A stretch of DNA of 58,494 nt from a virus. Its lineage: Duplodnaviria; Caudoviricetes. Below the pieces are notes generated by a model. The model did not search any database. It saw nothing but the letters and a program-made list of their open reading frames with translations, and had not been told where the DNA came from. Position numbers and translations under genes: made by a program. Position 1 is the stretch's first letter. Every line of letters starts with the position of its first letter. The DNA is taken from positions 1 through 58,494 of the IMG/VR virus record IMGVR_UViG_3300040664_000002, one strand, 5' to 3'. Shown in pieces: positions 5,731 through 58,494 of the stretch.

Positions 5731-5919
5731 ATGACCATGGTGAAGCGCAACGAGGTGAACAAGGCGATGATCGCCGCCGCGAAGGTGATGCCCGACGCCA
5801 AGGCTGACGAGGACACCGACAGCAAGCGGTCCACGGACTCGGACCTGTCCAAGGCCGCCGAGGCTCCGGTCAAGCCGCTGGGTGGCGCGCCTGCCCGTCT
5901 GCCAGGGTACGGGAAGTGA
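5731..5919 (+). CDS. Small hypothetical protein
   Basis: GAGGAGG upstream, strong codon bias. Confidence 0.6.
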   Translation: MTMVKRNEVNKAMIAAAKVMPDAKADEDTDSKRSTDSDLSKAAEAPVKPLGGAPARLPGYGK

Positions 5920-7851: not shown

Positions 7852-8039
7852 TCTGGTATCAGTGGATCGCTCTGCTGTGGATGGCGTCGGTTGTCGTCGT
7901 GTGCGGTGGTCACGTTATGGTTCAGATGCTTCGTGCTCTCCGAGAGCAGGAGGATGTTGAACGCGTCTCTCCTCAGTTCCTAATACTGGCCGTGTCCGGC
8001 GTGTTCACGGCGATGGCGTTCTATGGGGTCCAGTGGTAG
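7848..8039 (+). CDS. Small two-TM membrane protein
   Basis: Two hydrophobic segments. Confidence 0.55.
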   Translation: MIWYQWIALLWMASVVVVCGGHVMVQMLRALREQEDVERVSPQFLILAVSGVFTAMAFYGVQW

Positions 8040-8395
8040 GCGAGTTCTATGATAGCTTCATCCGTGGTGAGGATGGCGATATCGACGTCAACGACGCCAT
8101 TGGCAGGGCTGATGAGGTAGCTGTCATCCATGGCGGGTGGTTGCTTACTAAGACTGAAGACGGCAGGGTCAGCTTTGCGGTTCTCGAACTCGAGAAGGGC
8201 GAATCGACGAACTGCGATGGCGTGATCGTTGCCGGACCTACCGCGCGGATTATCATTCGTGGAGTTGGATACATCGGTCTCCGCGAACTGCGCCACACGT
8301 GGTGGGGCGATGATGATGCGTACATCTTCTATCCAAACGGCAAGGTGATCGCAGCTGCGTTTGTCGCGCTCGGGAAGTGGTTCGACTGTGATTGA
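8033..8395 (+). CDS. Hypothetical protein
   Basis: 120-aa globular-looking ORF. Confidence 0.6.
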   Translation: MVGEFYDSFIRGEDGDIDVNDAIGRADEVAVIHGGWLLTKTEDGRVSFAVLELEKGESTNCDGVIVAGPTARIIIRGVGYIGLRELRHTWWGDDDAYIFYPNGKVIAAAFVALGKWFDCD

Positions 8396-8431
8396 CGCCG
8401 CACCAGCTGCGCGGTTCGTCGACCGCTGGCG
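8392..8431 (+). promoter_or_regulatory. Conserved element upstream of terminase (copy 1 of 2)
   Basis: TGACGCCGCACCAGCTGCGCG-N12-CTGGCG; 29/39 identical to 11414-11452. Confidence 0.7.
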
Positions 8432-10105
8432 ATAGACCGCGACCACGCCACGCTCCTGCTCGCTCGCCGACGAGCTCGAGCGGAGGCCGAACTGCAGGCG
8501 GCGGTCATCGCGGAGACCTGCGAGCGCATCCGCTCATTCTTCTACCCGAAGCAGCGTGAGTTCTTCCGCTCCAAGGCCCCGCGGCGCGCCACGAAGAAGA
8601 CTCGCCGCAGCGGCGCCACGGCCGGCGGCTGCCGTGAGTTGATCGCGCGCTCGTTGGAGATGCCGAACCATCGCGCCACCTACATTACCGGCACCCTGAA
8701 GGATGCGCGTCGGAGAGCCTGGGAGAATGACACACGGTCCGGGTTCGTCGACGTCATTCGCCTGCTCGGCAAGCAGCGCAAGGGCCTTGGCGTCGAGGCC
8801 TACGTCCTGGCCGGCATCACGATCCGCGTCCTTCGGCAGGACCTGAAGCTGGAGTTCTCCAACGGATCGCAGATCGACCTGTTCGGTGCGGACAAAGAGG
8901 GCATGGCCGAGGGTCTCCGCGGCATCGCGAAGAACGTGTTCTGGATCGACGAGGCCCAGGACCTAAGCGGCCTCGACTACTTCTACCGAGGTGTCATCGT
9001 CCCTTCGATGTCCGATTTCGTCGGTGAGTGCTGGATGACCGGCACCCCTGGCCGTGACTGCGTTGGGATGTTCTACGAGGTCACCGCCGACGACGAGCCC
9101 CCGCTCACGGGCTGGGAGGTTCATCGCATCGCGGCCGTGGACAACCCGTTCTTCGGCCGCGTCGTGCGTGATGGCGACGAGTGGGTGGTGATGGACAACA
9201 TCGACGTCCGCTGGGCGCCGTACCGACCATCACCGTCATGGACCGAGGAGGAGGCGCTGGCGGCGGCACTCGAGGTCCGCTGGGATCGCGCGGCCGGCGC
9301 GGCGATCCGCGAGAACGGCTGGGCCGAGGATGACCCGGACCTGTTGCGCGAGTACTACGCGCGCTGGGTGAAGCAGGATGCGCGGTTCGTGTACGCGCTG
9401 CACAGCGTGCCAGAGCACAAGATCGCCACCCTGCCCCAGCGGCTCGGCGTGGACGGCTTCCCTGACCTGAGGCTGGCGCTGACGGACTTACCGGGCTGGG
9501 CCGAGGAGCGCCAGTACTTCACGATCTGCGGTGCCGATCTCGGAACGCGGGCCGCGTTCGCGTTCTGCGTGTGGGCGTGGTCGCTGATGGACTCCATCCT
9601 GTACGAAGTGGCGAGCTGGAAGATGGCCGGACTCGACTACGACGAGATGGCAACGCACCTCCACTCGGTCCGTGGGCAGATCGGCCTGTCGATGATCACC
9701 GCGGACGCTGGCGGCGGCGGCAAGCCGGCGGTGATGGGCTGGTCGCGGAAGTGGATGGAGCGCTACAGCCTGCCGATCACCGAGGCCACCAAGCAGAACA
9801 AGGCCATGGCCCAGAAGCAGATGAACAACGACATCCGCAAGGGATTCATCGTGTTGCGCAAGGACAGCCCGCTGATGCTGGAGTGGAAGGCGCACAGATG
9901 GAAGAAGCTGCGGACCGAGGATGGCCGCGAGGTCGAGGACGGTACGCCGCACGATGTCAGCGACGCGGCGCTGTACGGGCACCGCGAGAGTTTCCACCAC
10001 AGATTCCGCGAGCCGGTACCGCAAGTGGTACCGGGAAGTACCGAATGGGTGCTAAAAGAGGAGCAGGAGATCCTGAATGCCGCGATCTATGAAGATTACG
10101 GGTGA
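8426..10105 (+). CDS. terL: Terminase large subunit (start proposed at CTG 8426)
   Basis: Q motif FYPKQREF and Walker A KTRRSGAT lie upstream of the TTG at 8639; Walker B FWIDEAQ, coupling motif MTGTPG, RNaseH-like GADLG/ITAD/HDVSDAALY. Confidence 0.88.
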   Translation: MAIDRDHATLLLARRRARAEAELQAAVIAETCERIRSFFYPKQREFFRSKAPRRATKKTRRSGATAGGCRELIARSLEMPNHRATYITGTLKDARRRAWENDTRSGFVDVIRLLGKQRKGLGVEAYVLAGITIRVLRQDLKLEFSNGSQIDLFGADKEGMAEGLRGIAKNVFWIDEAQDLSGLDYFYRGVIVPSMSDFVGECWMTGTPGRDCVGMFYEVTADDEPPLTGWEVHRIAAVDNPFFGRVVRDGDEWVVMDNIDVRWAPYRPSPSWTEEEALAAALEVRWDRAAGAAIRENGWAEDDPDLLREYYARWVKQDARFVYALHSVPEHKIATLPQRLGVDGFPDLRLALTDLPGWAEERQYFTICGADLGTRAAFAFCVWAWSLMDSILYEVASWKMAGLDYDEMATHLHSVRGQIGLSMITADAGGGGKPAVMGWSRKWMERYSLPITEATKQNKAMAQKQMNNDIRKGFIVLRKDSPLMLEWKAHRWKKLRTEDGREVEDGTPHDVSDAALYGHRESFHHRFREPVPQVVPGSTEWVLKEEQEILNAAIYEDYG

Positions 10106-10349
10106 TGCAGCGCAGGTGAAGGCGCTGCTTCGCTGGAGCAAAACTGAGGGCATCGAACTGAGCCGCATCACGATCGGCGCATGCACAGTGGACGTGGTCC
10201 GCGCCGTGCCGCTCATCGCCCGGAAGCAGCCCGACGCGCCACCGGAGCATAGTCCTTCTCTGTACGAACGGTTCGCGCCCGACGTGATGATCCGGGCGAT
10301 ACAGGACATGGGCGGCGAAGAGTACACCCCGGTACTGAGGAGCAAGTAG
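10089..10349 (+). CDS. Hypothetical protein
   Basis: Small ORF directly after terL. Confidence 0.6.
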   Translation: MKITGDAAQVKALLRWSKTEGIELSRITIGACTVDVVRAVPLIARKQPDAPPEHSPSLYERFAPDVMIRAIQDMGGEEYTPVLRSK

Positions 10350-10351
10350 CG

Positions 10352-10756
10352 ATGCCTGTTCTGGATTTGGTCTCGTTCGACGAGATGATTCGGGACCACT
10401 GCCCGCGTCCGGGCGACCGCATCAAGCAGTACGTCGTCGACGGTAGACGCGAATCGCGTTGGGAACGCGAGACCTGTCCGAGTATCCACATCGATGAACA
10501 CATGGACAATACTGGACTGGAATGCCGAAACTACGGTCCGACGCGATGGACAGATCTCAGCCACGACTGCTGCGACGTGTGTTGTGAGATGCAGGAGTCC
10601 ACGAAGGACCAATCCGACGTCGAGACGTGGCTGGCGGAGCGCGCCCAGCGGCCGCCTGTCTGCAGTGACCGCTCGCTGCTGAGCGATGTGATCGAGGACT
10701 ATGGAGACATCGTCATGGCCAAGAACCCGATGTTCGCCATGCTGAGGAAGCCATGA
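10352..10756 (+). CDS. Hypothetical Cys-rich protein
   Basis: GAGGAG RBS, 134 aa. Confidence 0.55.
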   Translation: MPVLDLVSFDEMIRDHCPRPGDRIKQYVVDGRRESRWERETCPSIHIDEHMDNTGLECRNYGPTRWTDLSHDCCDVCCEMQESTKDQSDVETWLAERAQRPPVCSDRSLLSDVIEDYGDIVMAKNPMFAMLRKP

Positions 10757-10995
10757 CCACCGAAGAACAGAAGCAGTGTCGTGAGCAGGTCAGCGCCCTG
10801 CTTGGCATCATCGCGCCGACCGCGCGGTGCAGAGTCTTCGAGGAGGACATGAGCGATGACGCGCCGCCGATCTGGCAGATCGAGGTACGCGGCCGGAACC
10901 GCACCGTCCAGATGGATGCCGACGTGTGGCTCTCGAACCGCAGCAACGGCGACGTCTGGCGCGAGGCGGTCGCAGACCTGGTGGCTACGCTGTGA
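10753..10995 (+). CDS. Hypothetical protein
   Basis: ATGA-coupled. Confidence 0.55.
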   Translation: MTTEEQKQCREQVSALLGIIAPTARCRVFEEDMSDDAPPIWQIEVRGRNRTVQMDADVWLSNRSNGDVWREAVADLVATL

Positions 10996-11017
10996 CGCCT
11001 GTGATACGGTGGCCGCA

Positions 11018-11167
11018 GTGAACCCGTATCGGCCACTGTTCGTCGAGACGCCCCAGTGCGGATGTCGCGGCGTCATGCACACGTGCTGGGGTAAGTGTTC
11101 GTACATGTGCGGCAAGTTCGGCATCGCCGAGTCCGAGTGGCGGATGATGGTGGGGCGGCGCCAGTGA
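11018..11167 (+). CDS. Small Cys-rich protein
   Basis: GTG preceded by TGA-TACGGT extended -10-like element; CGC..HTC..C..C. Confidence 0.45.
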   Translation: MNPYRPLFVETPQCGCRGVMHTCWGKCSYMCGKFGIAESEWRMMVGRRQ

Positions 11168-11460
11168 ACATCAACGACAACTTGCAGCCGGTGCTCCGCG
11201 AGCATTATCCGTCGCCGAACATCAGGATCCACATCGGATGCCATCCCGATCTGGATCTGCACGAGGTCCGCGTGCTCAACAGCATCGGGACTTACACGTA
11301 CGCCAAGGCGTCGCTCACAAACGATATGGTCATGGCAATCGCCAAGGGCGACGACGGCGCATCGCTGTCCCTGCTGTTCGACATCATCGACGGACTACTC
11401 GCAGTCCTCAACCTGACCGCGCACCAGCTACGCGCTGCCACCTCGGCTGGCGCGCCGTAA
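11164..11460 (+). CDS. Hypothetical protein; C-terminus overlaps the portal upstream element
   Basis: GTGA-coupled; ends LTAHQLRAATSAGAP*. Confidence 0.55.
   Translation: MNINDNLQPVLREHYPSPNIRIHIGCHPDLDLHEVRVLNSIGTYTYAKASLTNDMVMAIAKGDDGASLSLLFDIIDGLLAVLNLTAHQLRAATSAGAP
11413..11452 (+). promoter_or_regulatory. Conserved element upstream of portal (copy 2 of 2)
   Basis: TGACCGCGCACCAGCTACGCG-N12-CTGGCG. Confidence 0.7.
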
Positions 11461-13471
11461 GCGCAAGGACGTCGCCGACGTCCGCCCTGGTCGCGAGCAG
11501 CCGGATGAGCCGGTCGCTCTTCACGCGCGCTGGTGGCAACTCAAGGGCCGCGAGGCCGCGCTGGCGCTCTGGTCATGGTCGGACACCCGCCGGGCGTTCC
11601 TTCGTGGCTACGGCACGCTGGACCTGATCCACGAGGCCATCTACGAGGGCCGTCCCATCGGCCGCCGTATCAACATGGCCGCGATGGACTTCCTTCGCGC
11701 CCAGTCCTCGATGTCGAGCTACCTCAACGTCCTCCAGTCCATGGTGGACACGTCGGTTGCCCGCATCGGCAAGCGCCGCGCGATGCCGGTCATCGGCGCC
11801 GACGACGCCGAGTACAGCGAGAAGCTCTACGCGCGCCGCGCGAGCCGCGTGCTGCGGAAGAAGATGGCCACGCCGGCCATCGAGCGCATGATGCCGATGT
11901 TCCTGCGTGACGGTGTGGTCCGCGGCGACGGCTGTATCCACGTCATGCGCCGCGGCGGTGACGCCGTGCTGGAGAAGTTCCCGCGCAGCGAGCTGGTGTT
12001 CGACGATGGCGAGAGTCGGAACGGCTCGCCGCTCACGCTCGCTCGCGTGCGGATGATCGATCGCACCGTGCTCACCGCACAGTACCCGGAGTTCGCCGAG
12101 CGGATCCGGGACGTCACCGCGGCGCCGCGCGACTACTGGGATCCGACCGACTACGACTCGCCGATGGACCCCGATCAGATCGAGGTCATCACGGCATGGC
12201 GACTGCCCTCGCACCCTGGAGCGGGCGATGGCTGCACCCTGACCTGCATCCGCGACGGCGAGGCACCGCTCGATGAACGCCTGTGGAAGCGTTCGCGGTT
12301 TCCGATCGCCCGCGTGCAGTGGACGCCGTCCATGCGCGGGTTTCTTGGCATCGGGCTAATCCAGCAGCTTGCCGGAAGCCAGAACAAGGTGAACGAGCTG
12401 TGGAGCGATCACCAGCTGGCACTCCACTGGGCGTCCCAGCTGACCGTGTTCGTGCCGCGCGGTTCGAACATCCCCAAGTCGCAGCTGCGCGGTCGTGATC
12501 CGAAGGTCGTCGAGTACGACGGAGGTGTTCCATCGTACATCGCTCCAGATCCAGCCTCGAAGCAGGCCATGGACAGCCTACGCTGGCTGATCCAGCAAAT
12601 GTACGAGGTCTCTGGCATCAGCCAGGCAGCGGCGTCGTCGCGCAATCCGCTCGGACCCAACGCCAGCGGCAAGGCGCTCGACACGTTCATGGACATCGAG
12701 AGCGATCGGTTCTCGCAGCTCGAGCTGCAGTACGCCATGGGTCGCGTTGACGTCGGCATGGCGCTGCTCGATGAGGCCAAGGACATCGCAGCGCTCGCGG
12801 CCGAGGATGACAGCATCGAACCAGCGCCCTGGATCGATGAGATCGACTGGGAGAAGTTCGACTTTGACGGCGGCAACTACCACCTGATGCCGGAGCCCGA
12901 GAACTTCATCCCGAGCACCCGCGGCGGCCGGCTGGATGCGCTGCAGGACATGGCGAAGATCCCAGGCCTGCTCAACAACCCGCTCATCACCGCCTCGCTG
13001 TTCGAGGAGCCCGACATCGCCCGCGCGAACCGCCACCTGCTCGGCCCGTACCGACAGCTCGAGAAGCTGATGGAGATGCTCGGCGACGAGAAGATCCCGC
13101 AGGAGATGTGCGTCCCCACACCGTACATGCTCAGCCCGCCGGGCCTCGCCAAGGAGATGGCGCTCGGCGAGCTCGGCAACGCCTTCAGCGAGGGCGCCGG
13201 CGACGCGCTGCTCGGCCGCTACCGCTGGTTCCTGCAGATGCTCGAGGACGAATCCCTGCAGGCGATGCCACCCGCCCCGCCGCCGATGGCACCAGGGCCG
13301 CCCGGCGCCGAGATGCCGCCGCCCCCGATGGGGATGTCGCCGGGAATGCCGCCCGGCCCTGGTGGCGTTCCGTTCATTGGCCCCAGCGGGGGGCCAATGC
13401 AGGTTCCGGATCCAATGGGTGGTGCGACCTCTCAACTCGCCGCGGGCATGAGCCCGTTCGGCCCCATGTGA
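11447..13471 (+). CDS. Portal protein (start proposed at CTG 11447)
   Basis: Position between terL and scaffold/capsid; YLNVLQSMVDT, FPIARVQW..GIGLIQQL, YEVSGISQ, SGKAL; 76 in-frame protein-like codons (ARWWQL, IYEG) upstream of the first ATG at 11675; Pro/Gly/Met tail. Confidence 0.85.
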   Translation: MARRKRKDVADVRPGREQPDEPVALHARWWQLKGREAALALWSWSDTRRAFLRGYGTLDLIHEAIYEGRPIGRRINMAAMDFLRAQSSMSSYLNVLQSMVDTSVARIGKRRAMPVIGADDAEYSEKLYARRASRVLRKKMATPAIERMMPMFLRDGVVRGDGCIHVMRRGGDAVLEKFPRSELVFDDGESRNGSPLTLARVRMIDRTVLTAQYPEFAERIRDVTAAPRDYWDPTDYDSPMDPDQIEVITAWRLPSHPGAGDGCTLTCIRDGEAPLDERLWKRSRFPIARVQWTPSMRGFLGIGLIQQLAGSQNKVNELWSDHQLALHWASQLTVFVPRGSNIPKSQLRGRDPKVVEYDGGVPSYIAPDPASKQAMDSLRWLIQQMYEVSGISQAAASSRNPLGPNASGKALDTFMDIESDRFSQLELQYAMGRVDVGMALLDEAKDIAALAAEDDSIEPAPWIDEIDWEKFDFDGGNYHLMPEPENFIPSTRGGRLDALQDMAKIPGLLNNPLITASLFEEPDIARANRHLLGPYRQLEKLMEMLGDEKIPQEMCVPTPYMLSPPGLAKEMALGELGNAFSEGAGDALLGRYRWFLQMLEDESLQAMPPAPPPMAPGPPGAEMPPPPMGMSPGMPPGPGGVPFIGPSGGPMQVPDPMGGATSQLAAGMSPFGPM

Positions 13472-39674: not shown

Positions 39675-39682
39675 TTCCTCCG

Positions 39683-39755
39683 TGAATCCGGCGGGACTCG
39701 AACCCGCAACCTTCCGATTAGAAATCGGCCGCTCTATCCACTGAGCTACGGATCC
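39683..39755 (-). tRNA. tRNA-Arg(UCU), CCA not encoded
   Basis: GGATCCG/CGGATTC acceptor, GCTC-AGTGGATA-GAGC D arm, CCGA-TTTCTAA-TCGG anticodon arm, GCGGG-TTCGAGT-CCCGC T arm. Confidence 0.92.
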
Positions 39756-58196: not shown

Positions 58197-58494
58197 CGCT
58201 CGAGGATCTCAACGGCGGCGCTCCGGGCGCTCTCGGCGGCGCTCCGGGCGGCGCTCCGGGCGCTCTCGGCGCTCTCGGCGGCGCTCTCGGCGCTCCAGGC
58301 GGCGCTCCGGGCGGCGCTCCGGGCGCTCTCGGCGCTCTCGGCGGCGCTCCAGGCGGCGCTCCAGGCGCTCTCGGCGCTCCAGGCGGCGCTCCAGGCGGCG
58401 CTCCGGGCGGTCTCGGCGGCGCTCTCGGCGCTCCAGGCGGCGCTCCAGGCGGCGCTCCGGGCGGTCTCGGCGGCGCTCTCGGCGCAACCTCTCA
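58193..58494 (-). CDS. 3' part of the SAAW/SAAR/SAE-repeat protein
   Basis: RGCAESAAETARSAAWSAAW...SAAVEILER*, TAG at 58195-58193 overlapping the convergent gene's stop. Confidence 0.8.
   Translation of the reverse strand, partial: RGCAESAAETARSAAWSAAWSAESAAETARSAAWSAAWSAESAWSAAWSAAESAESARSAARSAAWSAESAAESAESARSAARSAAESARSAAVEILER
58214..58485. repeat. Coding tandem repeat of 9/12-bp units with a 54-bp higher-order duplication
   Basis: 58370-58423 is repeated at 58424-58477. Confidence 0.9.

Follow-up and report, generated by a model that had tools for sequence, protein, structure and literature searches.

The portal and large terminase (TerL) genes of an uncultured tailed phage lack a canonical start codon, and each begins behind a copy of the same 39-nucleotide (nt) element, which carries a predicted hairpin and ends in CTG-GCG. 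The phage is known from IMG/VR record IMGVR_UViG_3300040664_000002 (Duplodnaviria; Caudoviricetes), and the whole 58,494-nt record, positions 1 to 58,494, is called the window here. At the portal the element belongs to a leader found in 23 distinct related sequences, where the start codon changes among CTG, ACG, GTG and TTG at one aligned position, and where the upstream reading frame stops just past that start. Among the terL loci for which DNA could be compared, the element stands only in the window phage and in one distant relative. We posit that ribosomes that complete the upstream frame, or that are held at the hairpin, could restart locally on a weak codon, so that portal output would be low and tied to upstream translation.

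The terL frame is open from position 8396, and its earliest in-frame ATG, GTG or TTG is TTG 8639; an in-frame CTG at 8426 sits 33 nt after the TGA at 8393-8395. The G+C content at third codon positions (GC3) is 0.83-0.84 in the 5' extensions of both terL and portal, and the terL extension encodes the Walker-A stretch KTRRSGATAGG and lies inside a Terminase_6N match (PF03237; residues 69-190, counted in the frame from 8396; 24 bits, the curated cut-off being 22; E 3.5e-5); GC3 and Walker A together indicate that the 5' extensions are coding. Among 218 TerL homologues, the closest of them 71% identical, the N-termini M-I-D-R, M-D-R or V-T-L-D-R-D-R align to L-A-I-D-R-D of the window, within one or two residues of CTG 8426. 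From this alignment the terL start is assigned to CTG 8426, with ATA 8432 a less likely candidate, and TerL (8426-10105, plus strand) becomes a protein of 559 residues. Read-through of the TGA, which would fuse the upstream gene in the same frame to terL, was considered and rejected because the homologues start at M(I)DR.

The portal gene is built alike. Its frame is open from 11417, the earliest in-frame ATG, GTG or TTG is ATG 11675, and CTG 11447 lies 33 nt after the TGA at 11414-11416. The full-length N-termini among 108 homologues read (M/V/L)-A-R-R-R-R-K-D and put their first residue exactly at CTG 11447, from which the portal protein (11447-13471, plus strand) has 674 residues. The window protein itself gives no Pfam hit at E <= 0.01, and its assignment comes from homologues, 40-62% identical, that carry precomputed PF16510 or PF23899; its position after terL and its size also fit. 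Database calls for the window proteins (P0002 and P0122) begin at internal codons, the portal call P0122 starting at ATG 11675 and counting 598 residues, and the same habit runs through the relatives: in the set of 58 closest portal homologues (P0122-P0179), 24 have the conserved N-terminus and 34 (~59%) have calls that begin further inside, of which at least one is probably cut by a contig end. The first letter is V or L only in protein records from JGI, and an M from other sources need not mean ATG. In the closest relative, a 57,595-nt contig, both genes (P0022 and P0123) are called from internal codons, and from these shortened calls we infer that it, too, has no canonical terL or portal start.

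A preliminary description of this DNA, made from its letters alone, had reported the missing starts and named 8639 as the first ATG, GTG or TTG of terL and 11675 as the first ATG of portal; both positions are correct. As outcomes that would count against it, it had listed sequencing errors at the CTG sites and homologues that start at the downstream ATG or TTG. Full-length homologue N-termini align to the CTG sites instead, and a 25,013-nt Logan contig from the probable source run, which spans 8300-11700 at depth 12 and is assembled from the same reads as the record and hence not independent of it, shows 0 differences across that interval, base-for-base agreement that rules out an assembly slip. 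Of three further sequencing runs, two gave no coverage and one covered only parts of terL.

Copy 1 of the element (8393-8431, plus strand) consists of TGAC, the hairpin, a spacer and CTG-GCG, and pairwise comparison with copy 2 (11414-11452, plus strand), the portal leader found across the family, gives the previously noted 29 of 39 identical positions, with each CTG 33 nt past an in-frame TGA. The core CGCACCAGCTRCGCG occurs twice in the forward and never in the reverse direction in the 58,494-nt record, in agreement with the earlier failure to find a third copy. The best partner of the portal 39-mer on either strand of the genome is the terL site (29 matches; the runner-up has 26), and 2 of 200 random 39-mers from the window had a partner of at least 29. 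Identity of 29/39 is weak evidence when taken alone, because this GC-rich genome, by a repeat search, contains at least 60 families of short repeats that are comparably good; the repeat is real, not chance, by its exact register with both start codons and its conservation in relatives. The two TGAs that the preliminary description singled out are not equivalent: the one at 8393 is the real stop of the gene at 8033-8395, whereas the one at 11414 ends no gene. The predicted hairpins comprise GCCGC, the loop ACCAGCTGC and GCGGT at terL (8397-8415, plus strand) and GCGC, the loop ACCAGCTAC and GCGC at the portal (11419-11435, plus strand). The terL arms, CCGC/GCGG, are a double change from the family's GCGC/GCGC and are shared independently by the related locus L092. 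An Rfam scan yielded three chance-level matches, none of them at the elements.

DNA of relatives came from IMG/VR (39 + 27 loci), JGI metagenomes (22 loci, many of them on shared contigs) and two contigs of metagenome-assembled genomes (MAGs); a locus search with a single protein returned nothing, and the relatives' loci were obtained with alignments. The pattern GCGC-[A/C]CCAG-N4-6-GCGC precedes the portal start in 23 distinct sequences at a distance of 6-14 nt (17 nt in one degenerate copy, L016) and is kept down to portals about 40% identical (N-terminus of L035 and L036). One stem G and the C, A and G of CCAG are invariant in a 20-site alignment, and 23 of 24 sites, all but the degenerate L016, could form a hairpin of at least 4 base pairs, versus 35% of 5000 random positions. 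Most stems are identical, GCGC/GCGC, and uninformative on pairing; the arm variants that preserve pairing are CCGC/GCGG (window terL; L092), GGCGUGC/GCACGCC (L024) and a closing A-U or U-A in seven sites. The conserved stem is GCGC/GCGC with CCAG in the loop. It is not the CCAGC:GCTGG stem proposed earlier to enclose the start codon, for GTG and ACG relatives keep CCAG without a partner; the accompanying proposal of CUG initiation fares better, being supported by the homologue N-termini. Pairing of loop and start, CCAG:CUGG, was also tried as a feature of its own and dropped: by eye, flanking pairs form at 9 of 14 positions in the CTG lineages, and CCAG stays unpaired in the GTG and ACG lineages. 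Comparison of homologous loci, which the preliminary description had recommended, finds the DNA motif conserved and stem pairing kept in a few variants, but the peptide LTxHQLR, read from the overlapping frame, is not a conserved feature.

The start codon behind the hairpin was read, in the 23 distinct hairpin-bearing sequences, at the position aligned to the homologues' first residue. It is ACG in nine (L005, L007/09, L011, L013, L014, L018, L022, L080 and L091), CTG in eight (the window, L003, L008, L012, L015, L016, L020/21 and L024), GTG in five (L004, L019, L074, L079 and L092), TTG in one (L006) and ATG in none, and 17 of the 23 thus have no canonical portal start. The preliminary description had asked whether relatives replace CTG by ATG or GTG; they do so by GTG but not by ATG, and ACG and TTG join the series. 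L080 has ACG at the exact position of CTG in its close relatives L012, L075 and L076; L018 begins ACG-GCA-CGC-CGA-CGC-CGT-AAG-GAC, or 'M'ARRRRKD, matching homologues called from ATG, GTG or TTG; and a start further upstream is impossible in L013, L014 and L022, where an in-frame TGA lies two codons 5' of the ACG. The third base of the start codon is invariably G, though the codon usage of the window does not favour CTG and ACG over CTC and ACC. Between stem and start lie 9-14 nt before CTG, GTG or TTG (17 nt in the degenerate L016) and 6-7 nt before ACG. None of the 22 listed spacers contains a Shine-Dalgarno sequence (GGAG, GAGG or AGGA), as the preliminary description had already noted for the window, where other genes do carry GGAGG, GAGGA or AAGGA. 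Distant portals that lack the hairpin mostly start with ATG or GTG, some of them behind a purine-rich stretch resembling a Shine-Dalgarno sequence (L025, L026, L027, L030, L037, L039 and L090).

In many leaders the upstream frame holds a further ATG, 4-7 nt 5' of the portal start (L004, L006, L008, L012, L014-L016, L019-L022, L036 and L080). It is arranged as ATG-N-CTG/GTG/TTG or as ATG-ACC-G-ACG and opens a mini reading frame of 4-8 codons that ends at the conserved upstream-frame stop; both window copies are without it, and a decoy, a coupling mini-cistron or an internal methionine codon are candidate roles. Some leaders of the ACG type (L005, L007, L009 and L011) contain three GCGC blocks with a near-repeat (GCGCACCAGCACCC / GCGCACCATCGAC / GCGCC), from which two mutually exclusive hairpins could form, the second taking in the last base of the ACG. 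In L020 a tRNA-Arg(TCT) gene (2555-2624) stands 13 nt before the portal hairpin and, compared with L021, amounts to an insertion of 81 nt, or 27 codons, that keeps the frame open; the window's own tRNA-Arg(TCT) gene lies away from the portal, at 39682-39755 on the minus strand.

The small gene just 5' of the portal (11164-11460, plus strand) would encode 98 residues if it starts at GTG 11164, which forms a GTGA overlap with the previous stop; it has no family hit and runs through element copy 2, its frame having a GC3 of ~0.8 over 11140-11440. The portal codons CGT-AAG contain its TAA (11458-11460, plus strand), which falls 11 nt past the first base of the CTG. A stop of the upstream frame past the portal start recurs in 25 of 25 loci, at +8 (13 loci), +11 (6), +17 (5) or +20 (1), and GC3 puts the upstream gene in the +2 frame in 21 of them. 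The stop is assembled from the third base of a portal codon and a following A-A or A-G: the codon is CGT in 22 loci, CCT in one and GCT in one, with GTA-GCA in L016, and CGT accounts for only 12% of arginine codons in the window genome. Across the relatives this happens in several different C-terminal contexts of the upstream gene, the number of upstream-gene families being approximate, as single-linkage blastp put 15 of 25 into one cluster; the basic N-terminus A-R-R-R-R-K is preserved in the portal frame. Taken together, the universal stop, the +2 frame bias, the rare CGT and the differing upstream genes point to selection for upstream translation that ends just past the portal start, as would be expected of translational coupling.

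At terL most relatives have an ATG or GTG at, or overlapping, the upstream stop and lack the hairpin. Among the terL loci with DNA, only the window and L019 have it, and both start at CTG; hairpin-less loci with a readable start all have ATG or GTG. The TerL of L019 is 55% identical to that of the window, and its P-L-I-D-R-E-R, compared with M-I-D-R-E-R, gives the CTG start. In L042 the homologue of the window's 8033-8395 gene ends in GTGA, the GTG of which is the terL start, and the junction has no element. The window junction differs from this type by ~30 extra bases, the element, between the TGA and CTG-GCG, and CTG-GCG are also the first two codons of the portal gene; from these two features it follows that the cassette, including CTG-GCG, was copied from portal to terL, where it replaced a GTGA-type overlap. 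MAFFT alignment of the window with L042 left the insertion unplaced cleanly, and the argument uses the protein alignment and the printed junctions. A common element that would regulate both terL and portal, as first described, exists in the window phage and one relative, and elsewhere in the family there is a portal element only. In L019 the 'AHQ' reading across the terL copy falls in another frame relative to terL than in the window, which identifies the conserved feature as nucleic acid rather than the LTxHQLR peptide.

We regard local re-initiation, or hairpin-assisted standby initiation, on a weak near-cognate codon as the most likely mechanism, and somewhat more probably right than wrong. 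The cassette would have three parts: a small hairpin with a G+C stem of 4-7 base pairs and a loop that usually contains CCAG; a 6-14-nt spacer (17 nt in the degenerate L016) free of Shine-Dalgarno sequences; and a near-cognate of AUG (CUG, ACG, GUG or UUG, with no AUG in the sequences seen). Ribosomes ending the upstream frame, or held at the hairpin, would restart locally on the weak codon, with low portal output, dependent on upstream translation, as the presumed outcome. In the window phage, the copied cassette would make both packaging proteins start at CUG behind the same hairpin, and a throttling of low-copy proteins, suggested in the preliminary description, can reasonably be supposed.

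Several observations weigh against this mechanism. The geometry at terL differs, in that the upstream stop precedes the CTG by 31 nt in the window and lies inside the loop in L019, so one geometry of termination and restart cannot fit all sites. Four of the 25 loci do not place the upstream gene clearly in the +2 frame, and substitutions between start and stop favour the portal frame weakly (extra states number 6 at codon position 1, 9 at position 2 and 12 at position 3), counts that were set aside as too weak to arbitrate between frames by themselves. Nor is the hairpin necessary for a weak start: L032, which is distant and hairpin-less, has CTG-GCT-AGA-CGA behind GGGAG at ~5741-5790. On the RNA side, the stem is near-invariant, covariation rests on a handful of variants, GCGC-N9-10-GCGC is an inverted repeat in DNA as well, and folds of single sequences are no better than those of shuffles (z -0.2 to -1.5) and often miss the hairpin, including the terL copy. 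A covariance model, R1, built from copies with 10-nt loops, recovers such copies only before portal genes and before the terL gene of L019 (E <= 0.002); it places the window portal copy at noise level (15 bits, E 1.6), misses the window terL copy and ranks copies with 9-nt loops among ~100 background matches, and so shows no genome-wide specificity for the window copies. The rows compared are related phages and not independent events. The database call for the L032 portal, P0205, begins internally, and weak portal starts may reach beyond the hairpin clade.

The inverted repeat could instead be a DNA site, in which GCGC-N9-10-GCGC is recognised by a protein of the phage or its host (such as an activator of late genes, a repressor or a protein of packaging), or an unusual leaderless promoter, the weak starts being a separate trait. 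Such a site would have palindromic arms about one helical turn apart, as are seen here; the closing A..T and T..A pairs suit a DNA dyad as well as an RNA stem, the folding has no thermodynamic signal, and the motif heads packaging and structural genes. We nevertheless think it unlikely, since the asymmetric, invariant CCAG and the tight 6-14-nt spacing to the start point to mRNA, at 21 of 25 loci the upstream gene reads through the site and stops just past the start, at terL the hairpin goes together with a CTG start, and neither 8393-8431 nor 11414-11452 contains a sigma-70-like -10/-35 pair. No phage RNA polymerase or sigma factor was found in the window, although the RNA polymerase control matched no genome, which makes this blank uninformative, and a promoter scan of 40-58 kb gave nothing above shuffle expectation. 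The phage late promoter with leaderless CUG transcripts put forward in the preliminary description finds no -10-like hexamer at either site and conflicts with the same read-through at 21 of 25 loci. Only slightly less likely than a DNA site is an RNA operator, at which a phage-encoded RNA-binding protein would control translation of portal, and here also of terL, in the manner of the MS2 coat protein at the replicase gene, upstream termination being irrelevant. A small stem with an invariant loop motif does adjoin the start codon, the two copies in a genome share loop bases beyond CCAG (CCAGCT in the window, CCAGGA in L019), and at terL the upstream stop precedes the hairpin. The shared loop bases of the window follow, however, from its recent duplication (29/39); the neighbouring genes have no family hits and offered no candidate binding protein, and an operator leaves the conserved upstream-frame stop and the frame bias unexplained.

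Programmed +1 frameshifting from the LT(A/P)HQ frame into terL or portal, which for the portal would occur at the conserved stop, was another earlier proposal and now seems very improbable. That frame does stop within the first portal codons in 25 of 25 loci, and many relatives have an ATG of this frame 4-7 nt ahead of the portal start. At terL, by contrast, the frame has no stop until 8557, and its 'AHQ' is out of register in L019; the pre-stop codons CCG, ACG and GCG allow no +1 re-pairing, and there is no Shine-Dalgarno-like stimulator; the differing upstream genes of the relatives would produce differing fusions; and the aligned start is always a near-cognate of ATG with an invariant third-base G, followed by the A-R-R-R-R-K N-terminus kept in the portal frame. 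Least credible of all is that a chance similarity has combined with sequencing errors or decaying genes, the true starts being the downstream TTG and ATG. Short repeats 70-75% identical are common in this genome, as is the bare motif in viral contigs: the matches listed by a permissive pattern search of viral_contigs included 119 new loci, of which 8 were portal relatives, none of them a new lineage, and 111 were unrelated. Against chance stand the re-assembly of the probable source run, identical base for base, the 17 of 23 distinct sequences that likewise have no canonical portal start, the skipped N-termini, which are conserved, high in GC3 and, in TerL, contain Walker A, and the register statistics.

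Among systems to which local re-initiation on this cassette can be compared, infC of bacteria has an AUU start that is subject to discrimination by initiation factor IF3, and the weak codon sets or regulates the level of expression. The portal leader shares with infC a conserved weak start; it differs in belonging to a phage structural gene, in a codon that varies at a fixed position and in the combination with a hairpin and an overlapping stop. Operator hairpins of the MS2 type are likewise small and present specific loop bases at the start of a phage gene, but the hairpin here does not enclose the start codon, and no protein is known to bind it. Prokaryotic termination and local re-initiation, as represented by ATGA overlaps, phage f1 VII/IX and MS2/fr coat-lysis in a 2025 review (PMC12548453), is similar in its co-oriented genes and in a downstream start without a Shine-Dalgarno sequence of its own; an upstream stop within ~30 nt of the start, also given there, is matched at the portal and more loosely at terL, and the f1 VII/IX example has a hairpin just upstream of the start. 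What sets the present leaders apart is the restart on CUG or ACG in most members and the sequence-conserved hairpin with its invariant loop motif.

Termination followed by re-initiation is thus the known principle that comes nearest in its working, and eukaryotic viruses offer a likeness as well. Calicivirus coupling depends on a cis element placed 5' of the stop/restart site, and near-cognate codons, decoded by initiator tRNA, also serve for restart (PMC5972666); according to the 2025 review, the need for such an element sets calicivirus coupling apart from the prokaryotic kind (PMC12548453). The termination upstream ribosome-binding sites (TURBS) of caliciviruses and influenza B virus, as described in the same paper (PMC5972666), resemble the phage leader in having, towards the 3' end of the upstream reading frame and ahead of the stop/restart site, a stem whose loop displays a short conserved motif. 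They also share a tolerance of non-AUG starts, of which the natural variation among CTG, ACG, GTG and TTG at one aligned position would be the counterpart here. TURBS are eukaryotic, and their motif 1 pairs with 18S rRNA (PMC5972666); moreover, in the window terL the stop precedes the hairpin, and the resemblance is one of working, not of membership. It is a tentative and rather doubtful idea that bacterial viruses possess a counterpart of TURBS, a movable 'weak-start cassette' copied from portal to terL that sets the stoichiometry of the packaging machine; a short, portable hairpin would hold terminating or standby ribosomes, and the start would be made on CUG or ACG without a Shine-Dalgarno sequence.

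A full-text literature search turned up no account of phage portal genes that start at CUG or ACG, nor of such an element in phages, and the one phage paper with the phrase 'CTG start codon' states that none was assumed (PMC9503643). Should our proposal hold, an essential structural gene would be started at CUG or ACG, with the help of a conserved cis element, throughout a clade of soil phages, which would add a mechanism to bacterial initiation and re-initiation, provide a natural series of start-codon swaps (CUG, ACG, GUG and UUG) and exemplify the dosing of low-copy packaging proteins. In practice, gene finders confined to ATG, GTG and TTG drop 76-82 residues from these proteins, the terL call losing Walker A.

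The window is a whole virus record with an estimated completeness of 99% and a G+C content of ~64%. Its packaging and structural genes are on the plus strand, and it also encodes a tail-spike-like protein, an internal-virion-protein-like protein and a primase. The carriers of the portal element are a clade of uncultured, high-GC, podovirus-like soil phages. An annotated phage collection contained no match to the window by DNA or by TerL or portal protein, and the only matches in genome_contigs are contigs of 2.5 and 3.3 kb, binned with a Chloroflexota MAG and a Kofleriaceae MAG and too short to name a host. The gene 5' of terL (8033-8395, plus strand), taken from the open reading frame list and its translation, encodes 120 residues without a family hit, and its TGA (8393-8395) supplies the first three bases of element copy 1; its GC3, ~0.6-0.7, is weaker than that of its neighbours (0.85-0.9), and a homologue occupies the same place in L042. 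Between terL and portal, 10077-11460 holds five small genes that gave no family hits and are linked in a chain by stops that overlap or abut the next start (junctions at 10349/10352, ATGA at 10753 and GTGA at 11164), and the content of this interval differs from relative to relative. Both ends of the record (1-150 and 58211-58494) carry arrays of 9- and 12-nt units resembling GGCGGCGCTCC[A/G]G, and they overlap, bases 1-95 matching 58370-58464 at 97%; circular permutation or terminal redundancy may be the cause, though IMG/VR classes the record as linear.

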